Source of the DNA: Vicinamibacterales bacterium
GTDB lineage: Bacteria; Acidobacteriota; Vicinamibacteria; Vicinamibacterales; 2-12-FULL-66-21
Direction of reading: 5' to 3'
Length of the DNA stretch: 64,000 nt
Assembly: GCA_036258175.1 (NCBI GenBank)
Contig: DATAEE010000027.1
Coordinates: forward strand, 2,779-66,778
Shown: in pieces, positions 31,881 through 62,280 of the stretch
Layout of the letters: every line of letters begins with the position of its first letter
Numbering within the stretch: the stretch's first letter is position 1
Notes under the pieces: model-generated
Seen by the model: the letters and a program-made list of their open reading frames with translations, nothing else
Database searches by the model: none
What the model was told of the DNA's origin: nothing
Made by a program: the position numbers and the translations under genes

Positions 31881-31915
31881 CCGGATTGTGTAGACCGTCC
31901 ACCCGAAGATAATGT

Positions 31916-32554
31916 GTGTCCATGACTCGACTTGCCTTGTCCGCTCTTCTCGCGTTCGGCCTGACGGCTTCGGAGGCCTCCGCCCAGTGGATCAAGAACA
32001 TGGCAAAGCGTTCCGGAGCAGGCGGATCGGTCGGAGGGATTTTCACGACTGACGACGACGTCAACGTCGGCCCCGCCTTTGGATTCAACTTCGGCCTCGC
32101 GCCCAAGCCAGGGCTCGGACCGACGCTGGGCTTCGGATGGTACCAAGGCGACCTGACGCTGTCCGACGTCTCCGGCGACACGGAGATCGGGCGCCTCCGG
32201 GTTCGTCCCATCATGGCGGGCATCGGGTACACGTGGGTGACGGGCCGAGTGGCCACCGGCGTGTCGCTGAACGCCGGCGTCAGCATCAACTCGATCCGGC
32301 TGAATGATCAGTACCGCAACTTCTTCGGACCCGGCACCGAGGTCACAGTCGACGCGAGCAACAGCTTCTGTGTCCGGCCTCAGATAAAGGTCGAATACGC
32401 GGTAGGGCGGAAAGTCGGCATCTTCTCGAGCGCCGGCTTCTTCTTCACCGAGTTCGACAACGTTATCGATACACCGGTCGGCCGCTTCGAGAACACGTGG
32501 GACGCGAGCAGCTTCAACGTGTTCGTGGGCGTGATGGTCTACCCGTTCAAGTGA
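31916..32554 (+). CDS. Small outer-membrane beta-barrel protein
   Basis: Signal LALSALLAFGLTASEASAQ, alternating-hydrophobic strands, C-terminal VGVMVYPFK. Confidence 0.65.
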   Translation: MSMTRLALSALLAFGLTASEASAQWIKNMAKRSGAGGSVGGIFTTDDDVNVGPAFGFNFGLAPKPGLGPTLGFGWYQGDLTLSDVSGDTEIGRLRVRPIMAGIGYTWVTGRVATGVSLNAGVSINSIRLNDQYRNFFGPGTEVTVDASNSFCVRPQIKVEYAVGRKVGIFSSAGFFFTEFDNVIDTPVGRFENTWDASSFNVFVGVMVYPFK

Positions 32555-38590: not shown

Positions 38591-39229
38591 TTAGTCTGAT
38601 CTGGCCTGTAGGATGCGCGACGGCGGAGGCAGGTGGTCCGCCATCCGTACGAGTTCCGCCAGCGAGCCGGCGTGCATCTTCTGCATCACCTGCGCCCGGT
38701 GGACTTTGACGGTTTTCTCCGAAATCCCGAGCTCGGCGGCGACCTGCTTGTTCAGGAGTCCTGTCACGACCAGGCGCATGACCTGCCGCTCCCGGGGGGT
38801 CAGGTCGTCGTACCGTCGGCGCAGCCCCGTCGCCTCCAATCGCTTGCGGAGCGCCTCGCGGTCGCGGTCGAGCGCCTTGCGAATCGCCTCGAGGAGCTCC
38901 TGCTCCCGGACCGGTTTGGTCAGGAATTCGGATGCGCCGGCTTTCATGGCGCGAACGGTCACGGGGATGTCCCCGTGACCCGTGAGGAAAATGATCGGCA
39001 GCGGCCGCTCGAACCCGGCCAGCTCCCGCTGCAGTTCGAGGCCGCTCGTGCCCGGCAGCCGCAAATCGAGGATGAGGCACTGCGGGCCGTCGACGCGAGA
39101 CGCGCGGAGAAAGTCGTCCGCCGTCCCGAACGTCTGACAGGCAAACCCCACCGATCCCAGCAACCGCTTCAGCGCGGTTCTGACGGACGCGTCATCGTCG
39201 ACGACGTAGACCGTCTGTTCATCAGGCAC
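38591..39229 (-). CDS. FixJ/NarL-type response regulator (REC + LuxR HTH)
   Basis: VYVVDDDASVR..LILDLRLPGTSGLEL..IFLTGHGD..TKP; LTPRERQVMRLVVTGLLNKQVAAELGISEKTVKVHR. GTG start overlaps the kinase stop by 8 nt. Confidence 0.88.
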   Translation of the reverse strand: MPDEQTVYVVDDDASVRTALKRLLGSVGFACQTFGTADDFLRASRVDGPQCLILDLRLPGTSGLELQRELAGFERPLPIIFLTGHGDIPVTVRAMKAGASEFLTKPVREQELLEAIRKALDRDREALRKRLEATGLRRRYDDLTPRERQVMRLVVTGLLNKQVAAELGISEKTVKVHRAQVMQKMHAGSLAELVRMADHLPPPSRILQARSD

Positions 39230-44367: not shown

Positions 44368-47001
44368 CTACTCGTGCCGCAGCGCGGTGACCGGGTCGAG
44401 CCGCGTCGCGCGTCGCGCCGGCCACAAGCAAGCCGCAAGCGCGACTGCAACCAGTAGCACCGCAATCGAGGCGAGGGTTGCTGGATCGGTGGTGCTCGTC
44501 TGCATCAGGAAGCTTTGCAGCAGTCTCCCGATGACGAGCGCGCCGCCAAAGCCGGCCACCAGCCCTGCTCCAAGTGGAAGAAGCGCCTGTCGGACGAACA
44601 GCCGTACGACGTCGCCTCTCTGTGCGCCGAGCGCCATGCGGACGCCGATCTCCTGCGTGCGCTGCCTCACCGAGTACGCGGTCATTGCGTAGAGTCCGAC
44701 GGCCGACACGGCGAGCGCGACAGCGGCAAAGACGGCGAACATCAAGCCAAAGACGCGATGCGCCCAGCGCGACTGCCCCTCCAGCACGCGCAGAGAAATG
44801 ATGCCGGACACCGCCAGCTCGGGATCCAGCGCCTGGACTTCCTGCCGGACGAGTGCGGCAAGGCCCTCTGGCGCTGGGCCGCGCACAAGCAGCGTCGCGA
44901 AGGGTCGAAGGTCCGCACGCATCGGGACGTAGGCGACCGGATCGAGCTCCTGCAGATCGACCGGCTGCTGCTGACGGATCGACGGCGACACGCCGACGAT
45001 GGTCAGCCACGGAGGTTGGGCACCCGCGGCGACAGGGTCTGACAGTCGGATGCGCCGGCCGAGCGGCTCCTCGTTCGGGAAGTGCAGTCCGGCGAGGCGT
45101 TCATTCACGATGACGGTCTCCTGCCCGGGCGTACCGTCAAGCGCGGTGAACGCCCGCCCTCGCAGCAGCGGCACACCCAACGCCTCGAAGTACTCAGGAC
45201 CGATCGCAACGAAGGACACGTTCGGCGTGGTCCCGTCTTTCGGCGGAGGACGTCCGTCAACGGTCAGCGTACGGCGGCGGGCTCCCGCGAACGGCACATT
45301 ACTTGTGAGCGAGGCAGATGCGATCGGCCCTATTCCCTGCAGCCGCTCCATCAGACGGTCGTAGAAGACCGTCCACTGCTCTCGCGGGTATCTCTGAACC
45401 GGCAGCGTCACACCCATCGCCACAACGTGCGAGCCGTCCACGACCTCGTCTGCCCGATGGAGCGCGAGAAAGCTCCGCATCATGAGGCCAGCACCCGCCA
45501 GCAGCACGAGCGTGAACGCGAGCTCTATGCCAATAAGCCCGCGCATCCAGCGCCGGGATCGGGCGCTCCCGAACGCGGTCCGGCCGGATTCCTTCAGGAC
45601 GTCGTACACGCCGCTCCTGGACAGGTGGAGCGCCGGCACGAGCCCGAAGATCAACCCGCTGCCCAGACACGCGGCCGCCATGAAACCAATCACTCGTGTA
45701 TCCATCGTCCACTGGATGTTGTATGGAAAGTTGATTCCGTGAACGTGACTCACGAAGGCGCGCAGACCGACGAACGCGAGCACGAAGCCCAGAATGCCGG
45801 CGACGATGAGCAGCAGCGCGCTCTCGACGAGCAGCTGCCGGACGATCCGCCACCTGGTCGCGCCGAGCGACGCCCGCATCGCCATCTCCCGCTGCCGGAA
45901 TGCCGCCCGCGCGAGCAACAGGTTCGCGATATTCGCGCACGCGATCAACAGCACGAACCCGACGGCGCCGAGGAGCGCCGCGAAAATCCTTCGTCCGGCG
46001 CTGCTGTCGACAAATGGCGTGACCGTCGCGCCCAGCTCCTTGTTCGTGTCTGGAAACGCAGCGGCGAGACGCTTCGCTACTGCTGTCAACTCCGTCTGCG
46101 CCTCGGGTAGCTCCTTCCGGATAGCGAGACGTGCGAAGACGCTCAGCGTCCTGGCGTCGCGCTTCTGTCTCGCCAGGCCGGGCATGTGCGCGAGGGGCTG
46201 CCAGATATCGGATACGACGGGGAATCTGAACCCCTCCGGCATGACGCCGACGACCACCGCCGGCACACCGTTGACGCGAATCGTCCGGCCGACGACGGCG
46301 GGGTCGTTGCTGTAGCGTCCATTCCAGACGCGATAGCCGAGAATGACGACCGGCGGAGCCTCCGGACGATCGTCCTCGGGACGAAAATCCCGGCCGAGCA
46401 TCGGGCGATCGCCGACCAGCCGGAAGGCGTTCCACGACAGATACGAGCCAGAGAAGCGATCGGGCGCGGCAGTCTCGTCGGCGACGATCAGCTGCGTGTC
46501 GCTATAGGCGGCGACGCCGTCGAACACCGTTGTCGACGCGCGCCAGTCCTCGAAATCCGCGAACGACACGGGCAGCGACCGCCCGGCCGCGTTGCGGCTG
46601 TTCAGACGCACGACGCGATCCGGCTCGTCGACGGGCAGCCCTCGCGACAACGCGTTCACGACGGTGAACACGGTGCCATTGACCCCAATCCCGAGCGCCA
46701 GCGTCGTGACCGCTACGAGCGTAAACGCGCGGTCCTTCAACAACAGACGCGCGGCGAAGCGCAGATCCTGGCCGACGTCCTGGAGCCAGGACGGGATCCA
46801 CACGTCGCGCGCCCGCTCGCGCGCCAGCAGGACATTGCCGAGCGCGCGGCGTGACTGGAGCGCAGCCTCGGCCGGCGTCAGGCCGCGGCGCTCCAGCTCT
46901 TCTTCCTTCAGCTCGCGATGATGCTCGATCTCTTCAGCGAGGTCGGCCTCGAGTCGCCGCCGGCGAACGACATACCACGCGCGGCGAAGGAACTCGCGCA
47001 T
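44368..47001 (-). CDS. ADOP-family duplicated FtsX/MacB-type permease (877 aa)
   Basis: N-terminal MREFLRRAWYVVRRRRLEADLAEEIEHHRE...; two MacB_PCD + FtsX modules; no ATPase gene nearby; PadR immediately upstream. Confidence 0.88.
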   Translation of the reverse strand: MREFLRRAWYVVRRRRLEADLAEEIEHHRELKEEELERRGLTPAEAALQSRRALGNVLLARERARDVWIPSWLQDVGQDLRFAARLLLKDRAFTLVAVTTLALGIGVNGTVFTVVNALSRGLPVDEPDRVVRLNSRNAAGRSLPVSFADFEDWRASTTVFDGVAAYSDTQLIVADETAAPDRFSGSYLSWNAFRLVGDRPMLGRDFRPEDDRPEAPPVVILGYRVWNGRYSNDPAVVGRTIRVNGVPAVVVGVMPEGFRFPVVSDIWQPLAHMPGLARQKRDARTLSVFARLAIRKELPEAQTELTAVAKRLAAAFPDTNKELGATVTPFVDSSAGRRIFAALLGAVGFVLLIACANIANLLLARAAFRQREMAMRASLGATRWRIVRQLLVESALLLIVAGILGFVLAFVGLRAFVSHVHGINFPYNIQWTMDTRVIGFMAAACLGSGLIFGLVPALHLSRSGVYDVLKESGRTAFGSARSRRWMRGLIGIELAFTLVLLAGAGLMMRSFLALHRADEVVDGSHVVAMGVTLPVQRYPREQWTVFYDRLMERLQGIGPIASASLTSNVPFAGARRRTLTVDGRPPPKDGTTPNVSFVAIGPEYFEALGVPLLRGRAFTALDGTPGQETVIVNERLAGLHFPNEEPLGRRIRLSDPVAAGAQPPWLTIVGVSPSIRQQQPVDLQELDPVAYVPMRADLRPFATLLVRGPAPEGLAALVRQEVQALDPELAVSGIISLRVLEGQSRWAHRVFGLMFAVFAAVALAVSAVGLYAMTAYSVRQRTQEIGVRMALGAQRGDVVRLFVRQALLPLGAGLVAGFGGALVIGRLLQSFLMQTSTTDPATLASIAVLLVAVALAACLWPARRATRLDPVTALRHE

Positions 47002-49514: not shown

Positions 49515-50201
49515 TCAGCATTGAGGTAGTTTCTCGACCAGCTCGTTCAGCGAGCCAATGCGCTCGCACGGATATTCCGTATAAAGGTTGAACGGGTCGA
49601 GGAGCATCGCTCGAATACCGGCCGCCCGGGCGCCGACGATGTCGACGTGGTAGATGTCGCCGACGTGGAGCGTGCTCTCGCGGCGGGCGCCGAGCCGTTC
49701 GAGCGTGTGCTCGAAGATGCGCGGGTCCGGCTTCTCGACACCTATCTCCGCTGAATCGATCACGCAGTCGACGCACTGCGCCAGGCCGAGCCGTTCGAAC
49801 TTCGCGCAGAGTGTGCCGTTGGCGTTGGACACGACGGCAATCTGAAGCCCCATCCGCCGCACGCGTTCGAGGGCTGGCACGACGTCGGCTGGAATGGTTT
49901 CCCACAGATTGTGCTGGGAATGGTACGCGCGCAGCTCGTCCAGCGCGGCATCGCGCTGAGCGCTGGGTGGGATGCCCGCCGCTTCGAAGACGAGGTCGAA
50001 ATACCGGCGGCCGCGCTTTTCGTCCGGGGCGGAACCAATGAGTGTCGGCTCATCGATCTGTTTGCGGATGCGCGGCTCACGCGCCGCGAGCGCCTCGGGC
50101 GTGGCCAGCAGGCCGTGTCCGGCCAGCACGGCGCTGACGCGACCCCAGTTCGGGAACACGATCACGCCGCCGGCGTCGAGAAACAGCGTCTTGATGTGCA
50201 T
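49515..50201 (-). CDS. HAD-superfamily hydrolase
   Basis: Start at MHIKTLFLDAGGVIV (DxG motif I variant). VVSNANG, KPDPRIF, VGDIYHVDIVGA. ATGA overlap with the upstream gene. Confidence 0.8.
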   Translation of the reverse strand: MHIKTLFLDAGGVIVFPNWGRVSAVLAGHGLLATPEALAAREPRIRKQIDEPTLIGSAPDEKRGRRYFDLVFEAAGIPPSAQRDAALDELRAYHSQHNLWETIPADVVPALERVRRMGLQIAVVSNANGTLCAKFERLGLAQCVDCVIDSAEIGVEKPDPRIFEHTLERLGARRESTLHVGDIYHVDIVGARAAGIRAMLLDPFNLYTEYPCERIGSLNELVEKLPQC

Positions 50202-51541
50202 CAGCGCCCCTGGCTCCTGATGACCGTGCCGCCCTTCATGACGAACGTCACGCGGTTCAGCACTCCGATGTCCGTCAGCGGGTCGCCGTCCACGGCGATG
50301 ACGTCGGCGAACCGGCCCGGCTCCAGCGACCCCACACGATCGCCCCACCCCAGCAGCTCGGCAGCGTTGACTGTCGCGGCACGAATCACGTCAGCAGGAC
50401 GGATGCCAGTTCGCGCCAGCGCATCCAGCATGACCTTGGCGGCCTCGCCTCGCGTTTTGCCCCGATAGCGCATCCACATGTCCGATCCGGCGGCGATCTT
50501 CACGCCGGCTTTCGCCGCCCGTTGAACGAGCTTCGCGTGGTTCGCGGTAAACGCCGCGATCTGCTTCTCGATGCCCGCCTTCTCGGCGTCGGTCCACGCG
50601 CGCGGCGCCACGTAGACGTCACGAAGCGCCTCAGCAGTCCAGGCGATTGGCACGAGCGTGATGCCTTTCTCTTGCATGCTCGTCAGCATGGCATCGGTCG
50701 CCTCGTCGCCGTGTTCGATGGAATCCACTCCCCCATCGATCGCCGCCTGGATGCCGGCGGCGCTCGTCGCGTGCGCCGCGACCCGGATTCGCGCGCGGTG
50801 GGCGGCGGTGACAATCGCCGCGATTTCCTCCTGGTCCAGCACCCGAGGACCATCGTCCGCGACGATCTTGATCACGTCCACGCCCGCCCCGAGCAGGCTG
50901 CCGACCGCTCGCCGCGCTTCGTCAGCGCCGCTTATCGGGATGAACTCCTCGTCGAGGATCGCGCTCTGATCATGGAGGCGAAGCGCGACCGCCTGGCCGC
51001 CGGGCGGCGTGACCTTGCGCCCCGAAGCGAGCACGCGCGGCCCCGGAACCCATCCCGCATCGATCGCGTCCTTCAGCGCGACGTCGCCATCGACGCCGGA
51101 GTGGCCGACGTTTCGCACAGTCGTGAAGCCGGCCTCCAGCATTTCGCGGGCATTCGCCGCGCCGATGAGGGCGCGTCGGGCCGGACCGAGCTGCGTGATC
51201 GAGATGATGATGTTCGCGCCGGCCCCGAACTGCTCGTCCATCCGCGCGAGCAGATGCGCGTGGCAATCGATGAGCCCCGGCATGACAATCGCCGTCCCAA
51301 GGTCGATCGTCGTCGCTCCGGCCGGCGCCTCGGATGTTATGTCGGCTGCGGGACCGGCCTGTGCGATCCGGCCATCCGCGACGAGCAGCGCATGGTTGGT
51401 CCGGTAGGTGCCCGTTTTGACGTCCAGCATGCGGGCTGCCTTGATTACCGTTGCGGTCGCCCCGGCTGGAGCCGGTGTCTGGCCGCCAGTAGCGGTGAGT
51501 GTCGTCGCGAAAACCCCGATGAGCGAAGTGAGACGGCTCAT
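50201..51541 (-). CDS. Secreted amidohydrolase family protein
   Basis: Start at MSRLTSLIGVFATTLTATGG. PGLIDCHAHL metal motif; AAHATS; IEHGD; GSDM; GRFADVIAVDGDPL. Confidence 0.8.
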   Translation of the reverse strand: MSRLTSLIGVFATTLTATGGQTPAPAGATATVIKAARMLDVKTGTYRTNHALLVADGRIAQAGPAADITSEAPAGATTIDLGTAIVMPGLIDCHAHLLARMDEQFGAGANIIISITQLGPARRALIGAANAREMLEAGFTTVRNVGHSGVDGDVALKDAIDAGWVPGPRVLASGRKVTPPGGQAVALRLHDQSAILDEEFIPISGADEARRAVGSLLGAGVDVIKIVADDGPRVLDQEEIAAIVTAAHRARIRVAAHATSAAGIQAAIDGGVDSIEHGDEATDAMLTSMQEKGITLVPIAWTAEALRDVYVAPRAWTDAEKAGIEKQIAAFTANHAKLVQRAAKAGVKIAAGSDMWMRYRGKTRGEAAKVMLDALARTGIRPADVIRAATVNAAELLGWGDRVGSLEPGRFADVIAVDGDPLTDIGVLNRVTFVMKGGTVIRSQGR

Positions 51542-51592
51542 GACGAGAATCATATTCGGTCGGATTGCGATCCGGTTTACCATCGGACGCGA

Positions 51593-52252
51593 ATGGACCT
51601 CGTCCTCCTCGGTGCGCCCGGGTCGGGCAAAGGCACCCAGGCTGACCACCTCCAGCGCGAGATCGGGCTGACTCACATCGCCTCGGGCGATTTGTTCCGT
51701 CACCATCTGCAGCAGAAGACCGACCTCGGGATTCAGGCCGGCGAGTTCATGACGCGCGGCGCGCTCGTGCCAGATCCGATCACGATTGCGATGCTGCGCG
51801 ACCGGATCACTCAGCCGGATACAACGAAGGGCGTTCTCCTCGACGGATTCCCACGGACGATGGAGCAGGCGATCGCACTCAACGAGATGATGTCCGGCCT
51901 CGGGCGGGACATCGACGCCGTGCTGTATGTCGAGGTGCCGGACGAGGAGCTGGTGGAGCGCTTGTCGGGACGGCTTATCTGCCGCGAGTGCCAGGTTCCG
52001 TTTCACCGGACGGCGAATCCGTTCCGGACTTGCCCGCAAGGCCGGTGCACCGGCGAGCATCTCTATCAACGCGCGGACGACACCCCCGACACCGTGCGCG
52101 CCCGTCTCGTCACGTATCACAAGCAGACCGCGCCCGTCATCGATTACTACCGGTTGATCAATCTGCTGATCACCGTGCCCGGCACCGGCGCGGTCGACGA
52201 GGTCAAACGCGCGACGCTCGACGCCGTCAGGCGCCTTGCCAAGGAGAGCTGA
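51593..52252 (+). CDS. adk: Adenylate kinase (Cys-containing lid)
   Basis: MDLVLLGAPGSGKGTQA, LLDGFPRT, lid RLICRECQVPFH...CPQGRC. Confidence 0.93.
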   Translation: MDLVLLGAPGSGKGTQADHLQREIGLTHIASGDLFRHHLQQKTDLGIQAGEFMTRGALVPDPITIAMLRDRITQPDTTKGVLLDGFPRTMEQAIALNEMMSGLGRDIDAVLYVEVPDEELVERLSGRLICRECQVPFHRTANPFRTCPQGRCTGEHLYQRADDTPDTVRARLVTYHKQTAPVIDYYRLINLLITVPGTGAVDEVKRATLDAVRRLAKES

Positions 52253-53793
52253 TGTTCGAAGCTGCCGAACTCGGTCAGGAGATCCCGAAAGACAAATACA
52301 AGGCGAGTGTTCCCACGCTCCGCACCGAACTGCTCGAGGTGCAGCGACAGCTGACGGCCGCCCGCTTCCCCGTCATCGTCATCTTCGGCGGCGTGGACGG
52401 CGCCGGGAAGGGCGAGACCGTCAACCTGTTGAACGAGTGGATGGATCCGCGATGGATCGTCACGCGTGCGTACGGTGAGCCGTCCGATGAGGAGAGCGAG
52501 CGCCCTGAATACTGGCGCTACTGGCGGGACCTCCCGCGCAAGGGCCGCATCGGTCTATTCCTGAGCTCCTGGTACTCACGGCCGCTGCTGGATCGGGTGT
52601 ATCGGCGTATCGGCCGCGCCGCGTTCGACAAGGAGCTCGACCGGATCGCGGCCTTCGAACGAACGTTGACCGACGACGGGGCGCTGATCCTCAAGTTCTG
52701 GATGCATCTCGGCAAGCGCGCGCAGAAGAAACTCCTGCGGAAGCTGGAGAGAGATCCCCTCACCAGCTGGCGTGTAACGAAGTTGCAGTGGCAGCACTGG
52801 CGCATGTACGGCAAGTTTGTGGCCGCGGCGGAGCGCGCATTGCAGCGAACGAGCACGGTCGACGCGCCGTGGACGATCGTGGAAGGGGCCGACGAAGCCT
52901 ATCGAAGCCTTACGGTCGCGACGACGATACGGAATGCGGTTCGACAGGCGCTCGAGCAGAAGCGCGGGGAGGCGCCAACGCTGAAGCTCGTCGGTGGATC
53001 GGGAAAATCCATCCGCGCCAGAGAGACGGCTTCACGACCCCAGGCGGCGACTGCGGCGCGACTCTCGGGGACCGCGCCTGGACCCACGATCCTCAGCAAT
53101 CTCGATATGTCGCAGACGATCCCCAAGAAGAAGTTCGCGACCGAGCTCGAGAAGTATCAGGGGCGGCTGAATCGCCTGCAGCGGAAGGCCCTCGCGAAGG
53201 GTGTCTCGACAATCATGGTGTTCGAGGGCTGGGACGCTGCCGGGAAGGGCGGGGCGATCCGGCGCGTCACCGGCGCCCTGGACGCGCGATCGTACCAGGT
53301 CATCCCGATTGCGGCCCCTACCGACGAGGAGCGGGCGCAGCATTATCTCTGGCGGTTCTGGCGCCATCTCTCGCGCGCGGGGCGGCTCACCATCTTCGAT
53401 CGCAGCTGGTACGGCCGCGTGCTCGTGGAGCGGGTCGAAGGCTTCGCGGCGGAGCAGGAATGGAAGCGCGCCTACTCCGAGATCGGCGAGTTCGAAGAAG
53501 ACCTAGTCGAGTACGGGATCGTCCTGGTCAAGTACTGGGTGCACATCACGCAGGACGAGCAGCTCCGCCGCTTCAAGGAGCGCGAGAAAGCGGACTACAA
53601 GCAGTGGAAGCTGACCGACGAGGACTGGCGCAACCGCGCGAAGTGGGCGGACTACGAGCGCGCGGTCAACGAGATGGTGGAGCGGACCAGTACCCGGCTC
53701 GCGCCGTGGACGCTGGTTGAAGGCAACGACAAGTACTTCGCGAGACTGAAGGTCTTAAAGACGGCCTGCGACGCGCTCGAGGCTGCGGTGTAG
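52252..53793 (+). CDS. Two-domain PPK2 (polyphosphate:AMP phosphotransferase type)
   Basis: Two PPK2 modules: IFGGVDGAGKGETV... and VFEGWDAAGKGGAI..FDRSWYGRVLVE..WKLTDEDW. The ATG shares one base with the adk stop (TGATG). Confidence 0.85.
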   Translation: MFEAAELGQEIPKDKYKASVPTLRTELLEVQRQLTAARFPVIVIFGGVDGAGKGETVNLLNEWMDPRWIVTRAYGEPSDEESERPEYWRYWRDLPRKGRIGLFLSSWYSRPLLDRVYRRIGRAAFDKELDRIAAFERTLTDDGALILKFWMHLGKRAQKKLLRKLERDPLTSWRVTKLQWQHWRMYGKFVAAAERALQRTSTVDAPWTIVEGADEAYRSLTVATTIRNAVRQALEQKRGEAPTLKLVGGSGKSIRARETASRPQAATAARLSGTAPGPTILSNLDMSQTIPKKKFATELEKYQGRLNRLQRKALAKGVSTIMVFEGWDAAGKGGAIRRVTGALDARSYQVIPIAAPTDEERAQHYLWRFWRHLSRAGRLTIFDRSWYGRVLVERVEGFAAEQEWKRAYSEIGEFEEDLVEYGIVLVKYWVHITQDEQLRRFKEREKADYKQWKLTDEDWRNRAKWADYERAVNEMVERTSTRLAPWTLVEGNDKYFARLKVLKTACDALEAAV

Positions 53794-53804: not shown

Positions 53805-54383
53805 CTAGCGCCGTTCGCCGAGCGCTCGATCAATTTGCGGCACGAGCTCATCGTACATTTGGAGCAGCTGGGGCTCCCACAGCACGATGTCGCCGTAGTA
53901 GGAGGTCAAGCCCTCAAAGTTCTCTTCCATGGGGCGCAGGTAGATCGCCTGCATGATGCCTCCCGTCATTCCCAGATACGTCCGCTGCAGGCCGTAGGCG
54001 CGAGACAGTCCAAGAGCGAGGTCCGGGTCGATGTGTGCGAGCGCCTGCGTGGCCAGCGCAAGGTCCCACGCGGTCTGCTCGAAGAACACCGGCTGCAGTC
54101 CCCGGATCTGGATGTTCTCCGCTGTGCGCTTCTTCGGATCCGCTGCGAAGTAGGCTCTCAACTCCTTCAGCAGCCCGGCGTGATAGTCCTTCACGCCCTC
54201 GACAGCCTTGCGGTTCCTGAGAATCTCCGATCGGAAGCCGCGCAGCGATGCCTCCGCCAGTTCACGGTCGCGGGCACGCTCGCGCCACTGCTCGGCCATC
54301 AGCGCAAGGAACACCCCGAGGCTGATGAGAACCACCTCGAGGACGATCTTCAGCAGCCAACCGGACCTGGACGCCTTGTCCAT
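53805..54383 (-). CDS. Single-pass membrane hypothetical protein
   Basis: N-terminal TM LLKIVLEVVLISLGVFLALMA followed by a helical soluble domain. Last gene of the minus-strand cluster. Confidence 0.6.
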   Translation of the reverse strand: MDKASRSGWLLKIVLEVVLISLGVFLALMAEQWRERARDRELAEASLRGFRSEILRNRKAVEGVKDYHAGLLKELRAYFAADPKKRTAENIQIRGLQPVFFEQTAWDLALATQALAHIDPDLALGLSRAYGLQRTYLGMTGGIMQAIYLRPMEENFEGLTSYYGDIVLWEPQLLQMYDELVPQIDRALGERR

Positions 54384-54414
54384 GCGGGACGGATTCTATC
54401 CCGCAGCCGTCGGA

Positions 54415-56283
54415 TTAGGGCAACCGGAACGCCGCCATTTCCTCGCCGTTACGAACCAGGAGGACGTTGCCGACGAGCACGGGATGGTTCCAGGTCTTGC
54501 CCTCGATGGCCTTGAACCGCGCAACCTCGGTGAACTGATCGGGAGTGGCCTTCACGAGCGCGAGCTCGCCTTCTTCCGACACCACCAGCAGCAGATCCTG
54601 TTCGGCAAGCAGAATCATCTGCCCGTTGCCGTAGCGTCCGCCCTTCCACTTGCGCGCGCCGTCCTGAAGATCGATGCACGAGAGGATGCTGCCATCGAAA
54701 CCGAACGCGAGTCCCTTGTGGACCACGAAGTCGTTGAAGTACGGCTTCAACCCGCGCGAGTTCCAGCGCTCCTGGAGCGTCCATCCGTCAGATCCGTGGG
54801 CGACCGCAACGCGGCGTATCCCGCCGCTACCCATTCCGTCGCCGTGAGCTAGAAGCACGTCGCCGTCCGCAGTTCGAGCCGGCTGCACGATGCTGACGCT
54901 CGGCTCCCCTGAATGCTCCCAGAGGACCTTGCCGTCGGCCGGCGCGACGCTCGTCGTGCGACGTCCGCGCAGCAGCAACACCTGGTCGACGCCGTCAATC
55001 GTCATCAGATGCGGCGAGCTGTAACCGGCACCCTCGGGTGGACCTATCCACCGCTGCTTGCCCGTGAGAGCGTCGTAAGCGATCAGGCGGCCGGAAACAG
55101 CGACGATGACCGTGTGGCCGACCACCAGCGGCGAGCCGGCAAAACCCCACATCGGGATTTCCTCGTCCGTGTCGGCCGCCGCATTTCGCGACCAGATCCG
55201 GGCGCCGCTGCTGGCGTCCAGCGCGTTGACGACACCTGTCGCACCCATCGTGTAGACGCGGCCGCCGCTGAGAGTGGGCGTCGCGCGCGGGCCGGCGCCG
55301 GCGTTGGACTCCCAGAACCGTATCGGGTCGCGGTGTCTCCACACCGGCTTGCCCGAGGCCGCGTTGTAGGCGGCGACGATTTCATCCGGACCGCGCTGCT
55401 CCTGTGTGTAAATCAAGTCGCCGGAGACCGCGAAGGACGACCAACCCGGACCGATCGGCCGTCGCCACATCTCGACCGGCGGCGATTGAGACCAGTCGGT
55501 CTTGATTCTCACACCGGGGATGACACTGTTGCGTCCGGGACCTCGGAAGCCCGGCCAGGTGGCTCGGGTCACAACGGCTGCCGGCGCAGGCGGTTCGATC
55601 TTCGCTGGCGCTGCGACGGCCGGCGCAACTGGCGCCGGCTTGGCGGAATCTTTCGTATCGACAGGCGGCTCGGCGGTTTTCTCCGCCGGAGTGTCGACCG
55701 GTGGCGGAGCCGGCGGTGGCGCCTTGGGTTCCTCGTCCGCCTGAGCGAGCAGTCGTTCTTCGGGAGTCGCCGTCCATCGCCAGTGGAAATCTGAACCGAC
55801 GCCCCTGATGCCGTCGGTGCGCAACAGCGTGAATGCCGCACACGTGATCACGGTGGCGGCCGCCATCGAAACGCGTCGCGGTGCGACGGTCAGGCGGCGG
55901 GTACTCACGGCCCACACGACCAACGCGAGGGTCAGCACCGGGAAGGCGTAGACCGGGAGCATCCTTCCCATCATGCCGCCCGCAATGGACGGGTGAACGA
56001 CACGCTCTGTCACGGCAAGCGCAACGGTCGCCAGGACGATGGCGCCTATGCGCTCGACCCAGGGCGCGCGGCTGAAGAACAGCCACCACAGAACGATCGC
56101 CAGCGCGCCAAGCATTCCTCCCATCACCCCCAGCATCGCGATCGACAAACCGAAGATCGTGGCCTCGCCCGCGACGATGGGGAGGACAAACCGTGCGATC
56201 GCGACGAAGATCCCGAGGACTGCTCCGGGCCACAGGCGAAGAGGCTTGCGGGGCTTTGGGTTGTCGGTCTGTATGTTGGACAT
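54415..56283 (-). CDS. Membrane-anchored PQQ-like beta-propeller repeat protein (paralog B)
   Basis: About 5 N-terminal TMs, a Pro/Ala linker, then WPGFRGPGRNS... propeller repeats. The C-terminal ~85 aa are about 85-90% identical to 57327-59102. Confidence 0.75.
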   Translation of the reverse strand: MSNIQTDNPKPRKPLRLWPGAVLGIFVAIARFVLPIVAGEATIFGLSIAMLGVMGGMLGALAIVLWWLFFSRAPWVERIGAIVLATVALAVTERVVHPSIAGGMMGRMLPVYAFPVLTLALVVWAVSTRRLTVAPRRVSMAAATVITCAAFTLLRTDGIRGVGSDFHWRWTATPEERLLAQADEEPKAPPPAPPPVDTPAEKTAEPPVDTKDSAKPAPVAPAVAAPAKIEPPAPAAVVTRATWPGFRGPGRNSVIPGVRIKTDWSQSPPVEMWRRPIGPGWSSFAVSGDLIYTQEQRGPDEIVAAYNAASGKPVWRHRDPIRFWESNAGAGPRATPTLSGGRVYTMGATGVVNALDASSGARIWSRNAAADTDEEIPMWGFAGSPLVVGHTVIVAVSGRLIAYDALTGKQRWIGPPEGAGYSSPHLMTIDGVDQVLLLRGRRTTSVAPADGKVLWEHSGEPSVSIVQPARTADGDVLLAHGDGMGSGGIRRVAVAHGSDGWTLQERWNSRGLKPYFNDFVVHKGLAFGFDGSILSCIDLQDGARKWKGGRYGNGQMILLAEQDLLLVVSEEGELALVKATPDQFTEVARFKAIEGKTWNHPVLVGNVLLVRNGEEMAAFRLP

Positions 56284-56301
56284 AACCTTATGGAAGCACT
56301 G

Positions 56302-57330
56302 TCAGGCAGCGCCGATGCTGCGCAGGATGACCTCGTCCGCCGTCGGTTGCGCCTTGATATAACCGAGCTCGCTCGCGTCGGATCCACTCAATGACGATCC
56401 ACTCAATGCCGCCATCGTCGCCTGCGCCATCAAAGATACGCGCAGTTTCATCGTGCTGGTCGCTTTCTTCAATGGCTCGACGTCGGAGCCCAATGAAAAC
56501 TCGTCGAGCAGGCGGAGCGCGTACTCGCGCAGCTGAGACACTTCGTTGAGGCTCACCACCTGTTCGGCCGTTCGGCGAAGTCCCCAGACCTCATGCAGCC
56601 GGTGGAGCCGAGCGAGATACACCTCGGCAAGAAACAGATGAAACCAGCATCGTTGATAGTCCGACGTGCAGTGCAGCGCGTCATCGTTCGAGACGATGAC
56701 ATAGCGGCCGCGAGGTACCCGGTGACCCACGAAGGTCACCGCCGACGTGTCAGACAGCCGCATCGTTCCAGTGAATCTCCATGGCCCGATTCGGACCGAA
56801 TCGGCCCGCAGGTCGGCGGCACACAGGACGGTATCGCTGCTGTCCGCGAGCGGCGCCTTGAAGAGGACGAGATCGGCGACTGTCGCGAGCGACATGTATT
56901 CAAAGGTTCCATCCAGCCGAACGCCGTCCGCGTTGTGACGTGCCACGACCGAATGGTCGGCCTGGCGTGTGCGTTCGCTCCCTGCATTGGCCAGGATCAG
57001 CGAGCGGTTCCTGATCGTTCGCAGGAGAATCGCGCGCTGAAATCTCGCGACGCTCATCAGTGGCAGCGGAACGCACTGCAGCGCACAAAGCGGATAGAGG
57101 TGCATCGCCACGGCGATGCCCAGCGGCAGGCAATTCGCACCGAGAAGCCTGGCCGTTGTGGCCGCCGATTTGAAGACGATCGAAGGACGTCCTGACGGCG
57201 CCGGATACATCTGCAGTTGCGGGCAGAGTCGTTCGAACCCGTGTCGGTACGCTTCGCGCGCGGCACTTTGATCATCCGCACGGTTGACGCCCTCGACGAG
57301 CTCCGCGATAAGGTCGATCATCGGCGTCAC
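56302..57330 (-). CDS. Hypothetical cytoplasmic protein, possibly a divergent acyl-CoA dehydrogenase-like fold
   Basis: Middle segment ...NADGVRLDGTFEYMSLATVADLVLFKAP...CAADLRADSVRIGPWRFTGTMRLSDTSAVTFVGHRVP resembles the ACAD beta-barrel domain. No cofactor motif recognised. GTGA overlap with the upstream gene. Confidence 0.35.
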   Translation of the reverse strand: MTPMIDLIAELVEGVNRADDQSAAREAYRHGFERLCPQLQMYPAPSGRPSIVFKSAATTARLLGANCLPLGIAVAMHLYPLCALQCVPLPLMSVARFQRAILLRTIRNRSLILANAGSERTRQADHSVVARHNADGVRLDGTFEYMSLATVADLVLFKAPLADSSDTVLCAADLRADSVRIGPWRFTGTMRLSDTSAVTFVGHRVPRGRYVIVSNDDALHCTSDYQRCWFHLFLAEVYLARLHRLHEVWGLRRTAEQVVSLNEVSQLREYALRLLDEFSLGSDVEPLKKATSTMKLRVSLMAQATMAALSGSSLSGSDASELGYIKAQPTADEVILRSIGAA

Positions 57331-59102
57331 TGGCTTGCGCGCGTCAGCCGGAACGCGGCCATCTCCTCGCCGTTGCGGACCAGCAGGACATTGCCCACCA
57401 GCACAGGATGGTTCCAGGTCTTGCCGTGGATCGCTGGAACGCGCGCCAGCTCGGTAAATTGATCCGGTGTTGCCTTGACGAGCGCGAGCTCACCCTCGTC
57501 CGACAACACGAGCAGGAGGTCCTGCTCCGGTAGCAGGATGAGCTGTCCGTTGCCGTAGCGTCCGCCCTTCCACTTGCGTGCGCCGTCCTGAAGATCGATG
57601 CATGCGAGGATGCGGCCATCGAAGCCGAAGGCATGTCCCTCGTGCACGACAAAATCATTGAAATACGGCTTCAGCCCGGTGGAGGTCCAGCGCTCTTCGA
57701 CCGTCCATCCTGCCGCTCCGTGCTCGACCGCGAGGCGGCGTGTGCCGCTGTCCGAGCTTGCGGAGATCAGAAGGCCACCGTCCGGCGTCATGGCCGGCTG
57801 CACGATCGGGAGTCCTCTCCAGCGATGCTCCCAGAGCAGCTTGCCGTCGGCTGGTGAGAAGCTGCGCGCGCCCTCGCCACCCATCAGCACCACCTGCGCG
57901 ATCCCGTCGATCGTCGCCAGCTGCGGCGAGCTGTAGCTCCCGGCGCCGGTGGGGCCGAGCCATCGCGGCTTACCGGTCGCGAGGTCATAGCCAATGAGCC
58001 TGCCGTACACCGCGGCGATGAGGACGTCGCCAACGACCAGCGGCGAGCTCGAGAAACCCCAGTACGGAACCTCGACCTCGGTGTCGGCTGCCGCGTTCCG
58101 CGACCAGAGGACGGCGCCGTCACGATCGTCGAGCGCGTTCGCTATTCCCGTCGCGCCAAACGTGTAGACGCGACCGTCGCTGAGGGTTGGCGTGCCGCGC
58201 GGGCCGGCGCCTGCATTCGCTTCGAAGAACCGGACCGGATCGCGGTGGACCCACACGGGCGCGCCGGTGCTCGCTCTGTAACACGCGACGACCTCGTCGT
58301 CGCCCCGCTGCTCCTGGGTGTAAATCAAATCGCCGCGAACGGCGAACGATGACCACCCCGGTCCGATCGAACGGCGCCACATCTCGACCGGCGGCGAGGC
58401 GGACCAATCGGTCGCGATGCGGATGCCGCGCGTCAGTCCATCGCGGTCCGGCCCACGAAAGCCAGGCCATTCGACCCTGGCCGGCACTGCTGCGGGCGGC
58501 GACGTGAGAACGGCGGGCGCCGTTCGCACAACATCGACAGGCTGCTCCTTTGGAGGCGCCGCAGTTGGCATAGCGGGCGGAGGCGCGGGCGTCTCGCTCG
58601 TTACGGCCTGCGTGAGGAGCCGCTCCTCGGAGCTCTTCGCCCATCGCCAGCGGAACATCGCGTAGTGATCGCCGCTGATACCGTCCATCCGGACGAGCGT
58701 CCAGACTCCGCAAGCAAACAAAATGATGGCGGCCATCCCTGCGCGCCGGGTGCCCTCAGACAGCCGGCGTGTCACTGCCGTGCCGGCGACCAATGCAACA
58801 GACATCGCCGGCACGACGTAAGCGACGAGCCAGAACGGCCCCATCGACTCATGCCTGAGCATCCACGCTGCCCCGACGCCCGCGACCATGAGGAGAAGGG
58901 TTCCCAGGCGCTCCGACCAGCGCACCCGGCTGAAGAACGTCCACCACACGAGGATGAGCGCGGCGATGCCGAGCATCCACTGCATTCCGAGTGCAAAGCC
59001 GGCGAATCCGGGAACGACGGCTTTCACGCCGAATCGGGCGATGCACAACAGCACCACCGCGATCAGGCCCGGCCACAGCCGAATGGGCTTACGGGAAGTC
59101 AT
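57327..59102 (-). CDS. Membrane-anchored PQQ-like beta-propeller repeat protein (paralog A)
   Basis: Same architecture as 54415-56283; WPGFRGPDRDG..., ends NHPVLVGNVLLVRNGEEMAAFRL. Confidence 0.75.
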   Translation of the reverse strand: MTSRKPIRLWPGLIAVVLLCIARFGVKAVVPGFAGFALGMQWMLGIAALILVWWTFFSRVRWSERLGTLLLMVAGVGAAWMLRHESMGPFWLVAYVVPAMSVALVAGTAVTRRLSEGTRRAGMAAIILFACGVWTLVRMDGISGDHYAMFRWRWAKSSEERLLTQAVTSETPAPPPAMPTAAPPKEQPVDVVRTAPAVLTSPPAAVPARVEWPGFRGPDRDGLTRGIRIATDWSASPPVEMWRRSIGPGWSSFAVRGDLIYTQEQRGDDEVVACYRASTGAPVWVHRDPVRFFEANAGAGPRGTPTLSDGRVYTFGATGIANALDDRDGAVLWSRNAAADTEVEVPYWGFSSSPLVVGDVLIAAVYGRLIGYDLATGKPRWLGPTGAGSYSSPQLATIDGIAQVVLMGGEGARSFSPADGKLLWEHRWRGLPIVQPAMTPDGGLLISASSDSGTRRLAVEHGAAGWTVEERWTSTGLKPYFNDFVVHEGHAFGFDGRILACIDLQDGARKWKGGRYGNGQLILLPEQDLLLVLSDEGELALVKATPDQFTELARVPAIHGKTWNHPVLVGNVLLVRNGEEMAAFRLTRASQ

Positions 59103-59110
59103 TGGATGGG

Positions 59111-61747
59111 CTACTCCGACCGCAGCGCCTGGAGCACGTCGACGCGCGACGCGCGGGCGGCGGGCATCAGCGAAGCGATGACGGCTGCGCCGACGAGCAC
59201 AGTGGCTGCAGCGACGATCGGCAACGGACCGGGAAGGCGCACGTTCTCCACGTAGCTGGTCACGATTCCGCCGAACGCATAGCCTCCGGCCGCGCCCGCC
59301 AGGATCCCGCCTGCGACCATCACCAGTCCTTCCGACAGGACGCGCATCAACAGCGCGCGCGGCGACGAGCCGACGGCCAGCCGCACGCCGAACTCGCGGG
59401 TGCGAGCGCTAACCGAGAACGCCAGCACGCCTCCGACGCCGACGACGGCGATCAACAACGCGACGCCGGCGAAACCCGTCAAGACGAAGGCGTTCAGCCG
59501 CTCCGGCGCGAGCACTTCCGCGCGCACGTCCTCGAGCGTCGCGGCGCGCTCGACCGGCTGCTCAGCTGACATGCTGCGGATTACACGAGTGATGGGTGGC
59601 ACCAGCGCGTACGGATCGTCAGACGCGTGCACGAACAACCGGCCCGCGAAGCGCATCTGATAGACCGGGTGATAGATCGTGAGCGCCGGCCCCGGCACCA
59701 CGTTCTCGTCGTCCACATCCGCCACGACGCCGACGATGCGCCTCGGCTGCGGTTTTCCGAAGAGGGATTCGGTCCACCACAGTTTCCGGTTGACCGCCTC
59801 CCCGTTGGGGAACACCCGCTTCGCGACGCTCTCGCTGATGATCGCGACGGGCTCATCTCCGGCGCGATCCTCATCCGTGAAATCGCGCCCGGCGACGAAG
59901 GGCACGCCGAGTACCGCGAAGAAGCGCGGCGCCACGATACGGAGGCGCGCGTGCGGATTCTCCTCGCCGTCCGCGGGCGTGTAGCCCTCAGCGGTGAACT
60001 GGAGCCGCGGAAAGGTCCCGGCGTCGCGCCACGGAACGAAGCTCCCGAGCGAGACGCCTTCGACGCCTGGCAGCTCGTCGATCCGTCGTGTCATCTCGCG
60101 ATGGAAGTCCATCTCCTTTGCGTCCGACGCGGCAAGGGCCGCCATCGGAACATCGAACGCAAGCACTTGCCGCATGTCGTAGCCCGTGTTCGTCGTCTGC
60201 AGCGCGACCAGCGCTGCGAGCAGCGTGCCCGCCGCCGCAAGGAGCACGAACGAAAACGCGATCTGGACCGTCGCGAAGGCCCGCAGACGGCGATTGGTCC
60301 CAGGCGTTATCCGTACGCCGCCGCTCGTCCCTCGACTTTGCTCAGGGCGTCCCGAGCGATAGTCGAGGGACGGCAGCCGCGGGATGTAGGCCAGCAGCAC
60401 GGCGGCAGCCATCGCCAGCCCTGCGCCCACCGCGAGCAGGCTCGAATCGACCGTAACCTCGAGCGCGCGCACGGAGAAGCGCGCTGCAAACTGCGCGACC
60501 ACGCTGACGAGCGGGCGCGCAATCAGGACGCCAAGAACCGCGCCGGCCCCGCACAGCACGAGGCTCTCGGCGAGCAGCGTGCGCCGCAGAGCGCCGCGGC
60601 TCCCGCCAAGCGCGGCGCGTACCGCAAGCTCCCCTTCGCGGCGCACGGAGCGCGCCAGAATCAGGTTCGCCACGTTCGAGCAGGCGATGATGAAAACCAC
60701 CCCCGCGGCCGCGAGCAGCACGAGCAGGATGGTCCGCGCCGGCGCCGCAATCTGCTCGCGCAGACGTGTAACGCTCACGCGGCCGTCGGCCCGAGCCGAG
60801 TACGCCTCCGGGTGCTCGCGCATCATCGCGGCGTGTGCCGCGGCGACGTCGGCGTGCGCATCTTCGACCGACGCCCCGGGCGCGAGCCGGCCAAACAGCT
60901 CCGTCATCCGGTGGGTGCGGTCGGTCACCATCGTCGCGCCGAGATGATGAGGGCTGGTCACGACGTTCGCGATGATCTCGGTGTCGGCGGGATATGGCAC
61001 CGATGGCTCGAGCACGCCGACGACCGTCGCCGAGATCCGTCCCAGCCGGATGGTCTTTCCGACGATCGACGGGTCGCTCTTCAGCGACGTCGTCCAGAAC
61101 CTGTGGGTCAGGACGACTACGGCGGCCGCCTTGGGTCCGTCATCCGACGCATTAAGCAGACGCCCGAGCACCGGCCGGAGGCCCATCACGTCGAAGTACG
61201 AGCCCCCGACGACGCCCGCCTGGACGATGCGTGGCTCGCCAAACCCGATCAGGTTGAAATCGATCGTCGAGAAATCTCCCCAGGAGGCGATCGTGGTGAC
61301 GCGTGACTTCAGGTCCTGAATCTCGGGCACCGAGAAGAGCGTGTTTGTTGTGCCGAGCCCGGGCGCGCTCTGCCGGATGTAGACCAGGCGGTCTTCGCCG
61401 CGATTGACGAGCGGCCGCAGCAGCACGCCGCGGACGACGCTAAAGATGGCGGCGTTGGCGCCGATACCGAGCGCAAGCGTCACGATGACGGTGGCCGACA
61501 TGCCTTTGGCGCGGCGGAGCGAGCGCATGGCGACCCGCATTTCCTGCCCGAGGGCAGCGGCTGCGTCGAACCAGCGGGTGTACCAGACGCGCCGCATCGA
61601 ATCGCGCACCGCGGGGATGTAGCCGAGCTCGTTCAGTGCGGCCAGCCGCGCAGCTTTTGGATCTTCGCCGCGCTCGACTCGTTCCTTGATGCTCAGAGCC
61701 AGGTGGCCGCGGATCTCGTCGTCGAGCTCGCGCTCGTCGGGGCGCAT
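59111..61747 (-). CDS. ADOP-family duplicated FtsX/MacB-type permease (878 aa)
   Basis: MRPDERELDDEIRGHLALSIKERVERGEDPKAAR...; two periplasmic-domain + FtsX modules; PadR 4 nt upstream. Confidence 0.88.
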   Translation of the reverse strand: MRPDERELDDEIRGHLALSIKERVERGEDPKAARLAALNELGYIPAVRDSMRRVWYTRWFDAAAALGQEMRVAMRSLRRAKGMSATVIVTLALGIGANAAIFSVVRGVLLRPLVNRGEDRLVYIRQSAPGLGTTNTLFSVPEIQDLKSRVTTIASWGDFSTIDFNLIGFGEPRIVQAGVVGGSYFDVMGLRPVLGRLLNASDDGPKAAAVVVLTHRFWTTSLKSDPSIVGKTIRLGRISATVVGVLEPSVPYPADTEIIANVVTSPHHLGATMVTDRTHRMTELFGRLAPGASVEDAHADVAAAHAAMMREHPEAYSARADGRVSVTRLREQIAAPARTILLVLLAAAGVVFIIACSNVANLILARSVRREGELAVRAALGGSRGALRRTLLAESLVLCGAGAVLGVLIARPLVSVVAQFAARFSVRALEVTVDSSLLAVGAGLAMAAAVLLAYIPRLPSLDYRSGRPEQSRGTSGGVRITPGTNRRLRAFATVQIAFSFVLLAAAGTLLAALVALQTTNTGYDMRQVLAFDVPMAALAASDAKEMDFHREMTRRIDELPGVEGVSLGSFVPWRDAGTFPRLQFTAEGYTPADGEENPHARLRIVAPRFFAVLGVPFVAGRDFTDEDRAGDEPVAIISESVAKRVFPNGEAVNRKLWWTESLFGKPQPRRIVGVVADVDDENVVPGPALTIYHPVYQMRFAGRLFVHASDDPYALVPPITRVIRSMSAEQPVERAATLEDVRAEVLAPERLNAFVLTGFAGVALLIAVVGVGGVLAFSVSARTREFGVRLAVGSSPRALLMRVLSEGLVMVAGGILAGAAGGYAFGGIVTSYVENVRLPGPLPIVAAATVLVGAAVIASLMPAARASRVDVLQALRSE

Positions 61748-61751
61748 TGCG

Positions 61752-62111
61752 CTACTCCTCCCCTGCCTGCGCCGGGTTCATGATCCGGCCGATGGCGCGA
61801 ACGAGCTGCGACCACCGGTCCGCTTCGCGAGACAACTGCGCTTTTCCTGTGGCGGTGAGCCGGTAGTACTTCGCACGCTGATTCGCTTCACTGACGGCCC
61901 ATTCGGACTTCAGCCAGCCCCGCTTTTCGAGGCGGTGCAAGGCCGGGTACAGCGAGCCGGTTTCGACCTTGAGGAGATCCTCCGACTGCGTGCGAATGGC
62001 CTGGCCGATGCCATGGCCGTGCTGCGGACCCCACTGGAGGGTACGGAGAACGAGCATGTCGAGCGTGCCCTGCAGCAGCTCCAGGCGCTGATCGTCGGGT
62101 GTTCTGGCCAT
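61752..62111 (-). CDS. PadR family transcriptional regulator
   Basis: Start at MARTPDDQRLELLQGTLDMLVLRTL..GPQHGHGIGQAI...GSLYPALHRLEKRGWL..RAKYYRLTATGKAQL. Confidence 0.9.
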   Translation of the reverse strand: MARTPDDQRLELLQGTLDMLVLRTLQWGPQHGHGIGQAIRTQSEDLLKVETGSLYPALHRLEKRGWLKSEWAVSEANQRAKYYRLTATGKAQLSREADRWSQLVRAIGRIMNPAQAGEE

Positions 62112-62115
62112 GGTT

Positions 62116-62150
62116 GTAGACAGTCTACGGCTTAGACGTAGACCGTCTAC
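62116..62150. promoter_or_regulatory. Two 13-bp palindromes GTAGAC-N-GTCTAC, 22 bp apart, just upstream of the PadR ATG (candidate operator)
   Basis: GTAGACAGTCTAC (62116-62128) and GTAGACCGTCTAC (62138-62150), with a TAGAC half-site between them. Confidence 0.5.
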
Positions 62151-62280
62151 AGCGTGTTCCTGCCACCCTGACATTTCCTTGACGTTCAGTTCCACGCCCG
62201 AACGGCGCTCCAACGCGGGCGTCCTAACTAATAAAGGACGCCGACGCGCCTACCCGTCGGGCTCCTCGGAGGTAACAGTC

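Follow-up and report, generated by a model that had tools for sequence, protein, structure and literature searches.

A predicted PadR-controlled operon with a duplicated permease and modular cargo genes in Vicinamibacteria-type Acidobacteriota

We analysed a 64,000-nucleotide stretch of contig DATAEE010000027.1 (the window) from a metagenome-assembled genome (MAG) of a Vicinamibacterales bacterium. The subject is a gene cluster that begins with a PadR-family regulator and an ADOP permease. The open reading frame (ORF) listing placed six consecutive, tightly packed minus-strand genes at 53805-62111:

61752-62111, minus strand: PadR, 119 aa from an ATG start, winged-helix family; predicted repressor, predicted to be autoregulated.
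59111-61747, minus strand: ADOP, 878 aa, duplicated FtsX/MacB_PCD permease with an N-terminal cytoplasmic three-helix prefix.
57327-59102, minus strand: TM-propeller A (TMP-A), 591 aa, five transmembrane (TM) helices, a proline-rich linker and a periplasmic eight-bladed BamB-like propeller.
56302-57330, minus strand: unk, 342 aa from GTG or 339 aa from the ATG at 57321; cytoplasmic ACAD-fold protein.
54415-56283, minus strand: TM-propeller B (TMP-B), 622 aa, paralogue of A with the same architecture.
53805-54383, minus strand: membrane protein (the sixth gene), 192 aa, single-pass, at the operon end.

The listing confirmed the genes, positions and junctions given in a preliminary description of this DNA (+4, +8, -4 with a GTGA overlap, +18 and +31 nt from PadR to the membrane protein), with one caveat. 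The NCBI and JGI annotations, which carry an identical protein, start unk at the ATG at 57321, so that a +5 gap replaces the GTGA overlap. A divergent DUF4136 gene lies upstream of the cluster and a convergent PPK2 gene downstream.

Next to the PadR start codon, the palindrome GTAGACnGTCTAC occurs twice in tandem, within a promoter-like frame:

62156-62160, minus strand: GGAAC, 5' part of the promoter-like frame.
62138-62150, minus strand: palindrome 1, GTAGACGGTCTAC, perfect.
62132-62138, minus strand: CGTCTAA, 3' part of the promoter-like frame.
62116-62128, minus strand: palindrome 2, GTAGACTGTCTAC, perfect, ending 4 nt before the PadR ATG.

The palindromes lie 22 nt apart, and the whole element spans 62116-62160; no Shine-Dalgarno sequence was found between palindrome 2 and the PadR start. 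In the window, the palindrome is matched exactly at these two sites alone, and shuffling never yielded as many matches. The frame GGAAC-N17-CGTCTAA also occurs once in the window, at 62132-62160. With either CGTCTAA or CGTATCA as its 3' part, it resembles the -35/-10 pair of an extracytoplasmic function (ECF) sigma factor. The putative repressor sites thus look as though they lie in the promoter spacer and over the start site. A degenerate copy of the palindrome with one mismatch occurs at 31890-31902 on the plus strand, 14 nt upstream of an outer membrane protein beta-barrel gene (31916-32554). The GGAAC/GTCTAA frame is missing there; we consider this copy a probable chance match and rejected it as an operator.

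Internal terminators or promoters would have split the cluster. Terminator-like matches within it numbered 8, against 5.3 ± 2.6 expected; they were not enriched and all lay within coding sequence, and the intergenic gaps are too short for a terminator. Neither a sigma-70-like promoter nor an operator match was found inside the cluster. These features therefore support the prediction that the cluster behaves as one operon.

The regulator matched TIGR03433 (padR_acidobact, 3e-44) and PF03551 (3e-20). The permease matched TIGR03434 over residues 67-878 (2e-202; 674.4 bits against a cutoff of 622.3) and is internally duplicated, with two MacB_PCD (PF12704) and two FtsX (PF02687) domains. Its residues 3-52 (approximately 61592-61741) matched the NCBIfam prefix model perm_prefix_1 (NF038403, 9e-09). 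With a full-length match above the cutoff, the duplication, and a neighbouring acidobacterial PadR but no ABC ATPase beside it, it has the hallmarks of an ADOP permease. Those of a MacB-type ABC transporter are missing, as no ATPase is fused or encoded in the operon and there is no adaptor or channel partner. The domain search found no ABC_tran in the six products or in the flanking DUF4136 and PPK2 genes, and no HlyD or OEP domain (adaptor, outer-membrane channel) in the six products or their immediate neighbours.

The pair is not wholly uncharacterised. A published proposal treats PadR-ADOP as a signalling dyad of the HAAS-PadR kind, and the ADOP architecture (a prefix, then MacB_PCD+FtsX twice) is listed as HAAS-bearing for A. 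capsulatum ACP_2125 (Ravi et al., mSystems 2024, PMC11237479). In the window, too, a stand-alone PadR winged helix-turn-helix protein is encoded next to a prefix-bearing membrane protein, and the same arrangement was seen in the 79 metagenome loci listed. Literature searches on duplicated orphan permeases, on PadR with FtsX in Acidobacteria and on DUF4386 found essentially nothing. A second PadR-ADOP pair in the window (ADOP 44368-47001, PadR region from 47341) is only 48% and 31% identical to the operon's pair, the PadR region having been compared only through its copy in L005. It had been described as free of the other operon genes, and we indeed found no relative of the propellers, unk, DUF2306, DUF4386 or DinB near it.

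Both propellers matched PQQ_2 (A, 3e-22; B, 7e-24). Hydropathy and AlphaFold2 (AF2) models support the earlier count of about five TM helices followed by a proline-rich linker. The helices are N-terminal with an N-in topology, and a disordered linker of 70-90 residues joins them to an eight-bladed propeller; in the model of propeller A, the helices span residues 10-139, the disordered segment 135-231 and the propeller 239-585. Nearly all of the top 30 Foldseek matches of the propeller were BamB (E 2e-19 to 5e-16; target-normalised TM-score ~0.65-0.75), the best at E 2e-19 and TM-score ~0.73. PQQ alcohol dehydrogenases were weaker by five orders of magnitude, with TM-scores of ~0.4, and models of PQQ enzymes stayed far below their cutoffs (TIGR03075, 21-26 against 480 bits; TIGR03074, 17 against 833). 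On these models, the propellers are BamB-like rather than PQQ-enzyme-like. The fold does not support the label "PQQ-like" used earlier.

The propellers are not BamB itself. The BamB equivalogs failed (TIGR03300, 48.6 against 285.2 bits; PRK11138, 36-49 against 423 bits), as did the test for a lipoprotein signal peptide, the N-terminus being the five-helix membrane domain. Blade number and size are the same as in BamB, their best structural match, whereas five inner-membrane helices and the long proline-rich linker replace the lipobox. Compared with DUF4386, DUF2306 and every other Pfam family, the five-TM domain matched nothing better than E 0.08. The TM-propeller family is large (at least 8000 matches), 65-70% identical even in Bryobacteraceae and often monocistronic. 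JGI labels it "outer membrane protein assembly factor BamB" despite the failed cutoff and the inner-membrane anchor, which is probably a systematic mis-annotation.

Propellers A and B are 57% identical overall and 82-90% identical over the last ~100 aa. The high C-terminal identity reported earlier is thus real, but it is not a sign of the recent duplication that had been read from it. Third-codon-position identity in this stretch (0.53-0.74) does not exceed that of the remaining propeller, and on this basis we rejected recent duplication or gene conversion of the C-termini. A-type and B-type copies hold the same positions in other genomes, with B-type orthologues downstream of unk in L017, L022, L023 and L026 (loci of relatives are cited by number), and the C-terminus is equally conserved across the family. 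Because synonymous identity shows no excess and the A and B positions are kept across genomes, the two appear to be old paralogues, and the C-terminus simply the most constrained region.

Direct searches with the unk sequence found no Pfam or PDB match, and a weak match to PigA (E 0.002) was the sole hint from the direct domain search. Exhaustive phmmer from unk reached proteins of 370-400 aa with 25-35% identity (E 1e-22 to 1e-10) that carry Acyl-CoA_dh_M, _1 and _2 (PF02770/PF08028/PF00441). A profile built with such distant representatives (A2) matched "ACAD type 2", DszC, KijD3, DnmZ and PigA in the PDB at 5e-23 to 1e-14, while a profile of close family members alone matched no PDB sequence. 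Homology to ACADs is thus detectable in sequence only via intermediates. The AlphaFold2 model of unk (pLDDT 94, pTM 0.93) has the helix, beta-barrel, helix order of ACADs; Foldseek returned 312 matches at E≤1e-3, and all 50 listed belong to the ACAD superfamily (E ~1e-10, TM-score up to 0.72).

The suggestion that the middle part of unk is ACAD-like was therefore right, for a divergent family. We assign the ACAD fold confidently on the model, and unk represents a new, strongly conserved family that has no Pfam model. It shares the three-domain alpha/beta-barrel/alpha fold of type-2/group D ACADs (DszC, KijD3, DnmZ, PigA, TcsD, 5z8t), but is only ~15% identical to them, 40-50 residues shorter and without a significant Pfam ACAD domain. 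Ser147, in the sequence GTFEYMS, is nearly invariant across the family. In our own reading of the alignment, this GxxxFxS-type strand motif presumably sits where ACADs contact flavin N5. The protein would work in the cytoplasm, probably as a flavoenzyme whose substrate is acyl- or carrier-bound. More than 769 homologues were found, typically ~70% identical across Vicinamibacteria and Thermoanaerobaculia.

Several observations concern the spread of unk. Identity is still ~60% between Acidobacteriota and the gammaproteobacterial Steroidobacteraceae, where the neighbours (M20 peptidase, NAD-binding protein, AhpC/TSA protein) have no common theme. At 11608-13221 of L001, a 537-aa transposase-like ORF follows unk and suggests that it may be mobile. 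Downstream of the most distant relative (45% identity; L042, Luteimonas, 963-4775) lie genes of the metallo-beta-lactamase-fold, cytidylyltransferase-like and ATP-grasp types, an arrangement that resembles a small biosynthetic cluster.

The product of the sixth gene has one TM helix (residues 10-28) and no Pfam, NCBIfam or PADLOC match; PADLOC defence models gave no match. Its family numbers 750 homologues, which outside the window's lineage lie in unrelated contexts. The gene is missing from the 32 related genome loci and was seen solely in contigs that belong to the same species as the window. The slot after TMP-B holds a DinB_2 gene in L017 and L023 and a SnoaL-like gene in L026. By these comparisons, the sixth gene is a lineage-specific passenger and not a conserved member. 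Beyond it, the region 50201-53793 holds two plus-strand genes, one for a PPK2 polyphosphate kinase with two domains and one for an adenylate kinase, which converge on the operon and come within 11 nt of its last stop codon. A minus-strand amidohydrolase gene adjoins this pair, and the same neighbours occur in L005-L007.

We compared the surroundings of unk in the 32 genome loci and several metagenome contigs. Longest-ORF gene calling, which mis-stranded some high-GC genes, served solely to choose Pfam candidates. Arrangement A, PadR-ADOP-TMP-unk-TMP, occurs in the window and in L009-11, L017, L022, L023 and L026, with variants in L013 (TMP-TMP-unk-TMP), L021 (ADOP-unk-TMP) and L024 (two DUF2306 genes inserted). 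It is found in at least 8 other genomes, so linkage to ADOP is a conserved trait and not peculiar to this genome; the linked ADOP is an orthologue (70-89% identity, against ~30% for paralogues). In arrangement B (L008, L030), the order is GntR-ABC ATPase-permease-TMP-TMP-unk, and in arrangement C (L003/L015, L012, L016, L025, L028) it is GntR-ABC-permease-unk with or without flanking DUF4386. Arrangement D consists of unk with one TMP only (L018-L020, L027, L029). In arrangement E, unk stands by itself or, in Steroidobacteraceae and Luteimonas, within another syntenic block; solitary unk genes were seen in L001, L014, L035, 10 Steroidobacteraceae loci, one other Gammaproteobacteria MAG and the Luteimonas genome. 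In a neighbour-joining tree of unk, the arrangements are interleaved and type A forms a basal grade. ADOP linkage is therefore conserved but not obligatory.

The cargo behind PadR-ADOP also differs by genome and is drawn from one small set. Six of the 10 informative contigs have orthologous PadR-ADOP without a downstream propeller or unk (L049, L073, L086, L118, L128, L155), and two loci have one propeller and no unk (L080, L102). Layouts include PadR-ADOP-DUF2306x2-TMP-unk-TMP (L024), PadR-ADOP-TMP-DUF2306 (L080), PadR-ADOP-DUF4386 (L118), PadR-ADOP-DUF2306 (L150) and one in which DinB_2 follows a TMP (L017/L023).

The operator recurs with these genes. As a tandem, or as a single copy with at most one mismatch, it lies before PadR in L005/6, L009-11, L013, L017, L023, L024 and L026. 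All type-A loci with an intact upstream region have it before PadR (in L021 and L022 the contig stops short of that region). The element also stands directly before unk (L014, L019, L027, L029, L035, L043), before a TM-propeller (L018, L108) and before a second ADOP (L009/10). A metagenome scan for the tandem element found at least 120 loci, and the following figures apply among the matches listed. An orthologous PadR (76-91% identity) starts ~5 nt past the element and is followed by ADOP in 79 of the 120 loci. In the remaining loci, the element heads DUF2306 (10 loci), DUF4386 (8e-44), a TM-propeller, DinB_2, a secreted rhodanese or an ADOP paralogue; the operator-headed unk, TM-propeller, DUF2306, DUF4386, DinB_2 and rhodanese genes lie in loci without PadR or ADOP. 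The promoter-like frame recurs as well, although neither of its parts was in the search pattern: 58 of the 67 distinct promoters (L047-L166) keep GGAAC 5 nt ahead of palindrome 1, and GTCTAA or GTATCA directly follows palindrome 1 in related promoters. Besides PadR, DUF2306 is the gene most often headed by the operator among the matches listed (DUF2306 loci L054, L059, L067, L072, L093, L115, L116, L129, L132, L096, L050). It is also found inside PadR-ADOP operons (L024 6544-7992; L080 6277-6942; L150 8804-8920).

We consider it reasonably probable that the cluster forms a single autoregulated operon and belongs to a PadR regulon with modular cargo in Vicinamibacteria-type Acidobacteriota. Because the same operator marks cargo genes elsewhere in soil Acidobacteriota, the system is best read as a regulon and not as one fixed machine. 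ADOP would then probably be the sensor/permease of a stress regulon, and not the core of an obligate complex. In the proposed mechanism, PadR is predicted to bind the palindromes and repress its own operon. ADOP would serve mainly as a membrane sensor whose two periplasmic MacB-type domains detect an envelope or xenobiotic signal; its cytoplasmic HAAS-type prefix would pass this signal to PadR, which would leave the DNA. Expression may need both an envelope-stress ECF sigma factor and the release of PadR. The cargo proteins would be the effectors, co-regulated partners and not obligate ADOP subunits, with the inner-membrane-anchored, long-linker BamB-like propellers serving as periplasmic binding scaffolds. 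We infer that these effectors act in an envelope-stress or xenobiotic response.

Several points weigh against this interpretation. A HAAS domain is a DUF1700/DUF1129/DUF1048-like set of three N-terminal helices with a GxP kink; its call on the ADOP prefix was not reproduced by sequence: neither the single sequence nor an 18-sequence N-terminal profile matched anything in the PDB or Pfam. The promoter frame is a putative ECF-type promoter, identified only by its likeness to consensus motifs. The operator is missing from TM-propellers that stand alone in other Acidobacteriota (L044-L046) and from the unk genes of Steroidobacteraceae; the cargo therefore also works outside the regulon. ADOP might still transport actively, with its ATPase encoded at another site. 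What the cargo does is deduced purely through guilt by association, and all source organisms are uncultured MAGs.

An alternative that we think unlikely, although it survives best, is detoxification of xenobiotics or antimicrobials. PadR would sense a toxic hydrophobic compound directly, ADOP would expel it, the ACAD-fold flavoenzyme, a DinB-type thiol transferase, DUF2306 and rhodanese would modify it, and the propellers would bind it in the periplasm. Classical PadR/LmrR-type repressors sense toxic hydrophobic compounds directly, and the MacB-type fold serves efflux elsewhere. DinB_2/MST-like, rhodanese and DUF2306 genes do belong to the regulon, xenobiotic flavin monooxygenases (DszC/TdsC, MsuC) are among the nearest relatives of unk, and one DUF2306 member, a fungal protein, is required in an epoxidation step (PMC12895699). 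However, no gene for an ATPase, adaptor or outer-membrane channel lies in or adjoins the cluster, and a minimal 119-aa PadR with a prefix-bearing membrane protein is the pattern proposed for indirect sensing (PMC11237479). This alternative differs from the regulon reading mainly in the signal and the identity of the sensor.

Somewhat less likely still is the single envelope machine that the preliminary description had envisaged around an ATPase-less MacB-type permease. In this model, ADOP would be the core, with the propellers as its arms in the periplasm and the ACAD-like protein as a subunit on the cytoplasmic side. The very tight packing, with a possible GTGA overlap, would fit such a machine, as would the location of all membrane parts in the inner membrane and the TMP-unk-TMP order kept behind orthologous ADOP in the arrangement A loci L009-11, L017, L022, L023, L024 and L026. 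Yet each part occurs without the others. Orthologous PadR-ADOP pairs stand without propellers or unk or with one propeller only, unk and a TMP occur without ADOP or with a GntR-ABC module in its place, and unk can be solitary. The TM-propeller family is also far larger than the unk family. The machine model is weakened because its parts occur independently; the TMP-unk-TMP core might nevertheless form such an assembly.

A redox module, in which the propellers would be membrane-bound PQQ-type dehydrogenases (compare membrane glucose dehydrogenase) coupled to a cytoplasmic flavoprotein, is very improbable. It could appeal to weak PQQ-family matches (PF01011, 4e-09; TIGR03074, 8e-04) and to the five-TM N-terminus, but the scores are far under the cutoffs, the propeller has only ~350 aa and its fold sides with BamB. 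That unrelated genes came together by chance in a genome rich in ADOP paralogues, several of which lie within a few kb in the window and related contigs, can practically be dismissed, as the linked ADOP is orthologous in at least 8 genomes and a palindrome of 12 specified bases recurs exactly upstream of the same families at unlinked loci.

Two other genes of the window drew our attention. The gene at 39222-41636 (minus strand) encodes an 804-aa MASE1-PAS-PAS-HisKA-HATPase sensor kinase, and that at 28782-31184 (plus strand) an 800-aa secreted protein whose C-terminal third is of Gly/Tyr/Arg-rich low complexity and ends in GGGGRRR.

ADOP shares the FtsX-type TM bundle and MacB periplasmic core with MacB/type VII ABC transporters (MacAB-TolC, LolCDE, FtsEX, BceAB), of which the BceAB type doubles as a sensor for a regulator. 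It differs from them in having no fused or adjacent ABC ATPase, no adaptor or TolC gene, an internally duplicated permease and, as its partner regulator, a PadR instead of a two-component system. The GntR of arrangements B and C is YtrA-like, and its loci (L003/L015, L008, L012, L016, L025, L028) have a TTGACA-like box and the palindrome GGTGTTAT-N8-ATAACACC upstream of GntR. In Bacillus subtilis, the YtrA-type GntR-ABC operon ytrGABCDEF is induced by cell-wall antibiotics. Thermoanaerobaculia and some Vicinamibacteria similarly place unk, propeller and DUF4386 genes behind a GntR-ABC ATPase-permease module with a predicted autoregulatory palindrome, but regulator and transporter are of another class, and these loci are in relatives and not in the window. 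The published HAAS-PadR dyad likewise comprises a stand-alone PadR and a membrane protein with an N-terminal prefix and MacB_PCD+FtsX twice (here with a gap of 4 nt), but the paper gives no operator, regulon or cargo (PMC11237479), whereas the locus described here is a five- to six-gene operon with a tandem operator and recurring cargo. The dyad is known already; the operator, the regulon and the cargo are new.

In Acidobacteria, a dominant soil phylum, few paralogous families are larger than the ADOP permeases, and we know of no ADOP with an established role. More tentatively, the data may point to a widespread, undescribed envelope-stress regulon of soil Acidobacteriota. A HAAS-ADOP sensor and a PadR acting on ECF-type promoters would control unstudied effectors: the propellers, anchored in the inner membrane and spanning the periplasm, an ACAD-fold family conserved at 70% across classes, DUF2306 and DUF4386. 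In this regulon, the propellers and the ACAD-fold protein might form a functional pair that links periplasmic binding to cytoplasmic acyl or lipid modification. The locus offers testable handles, namely a defined operator/promoter motif, a regulon list that motif searches can extend and a conserved cargo set. Two abundant cargo families, the five-TM BamB-like propellers and the ACAD-fold family without a Pfam model, are unstudied. The locus also gives the proposed HAAS-PadR alternative to two-component signalling its first concrete targets.

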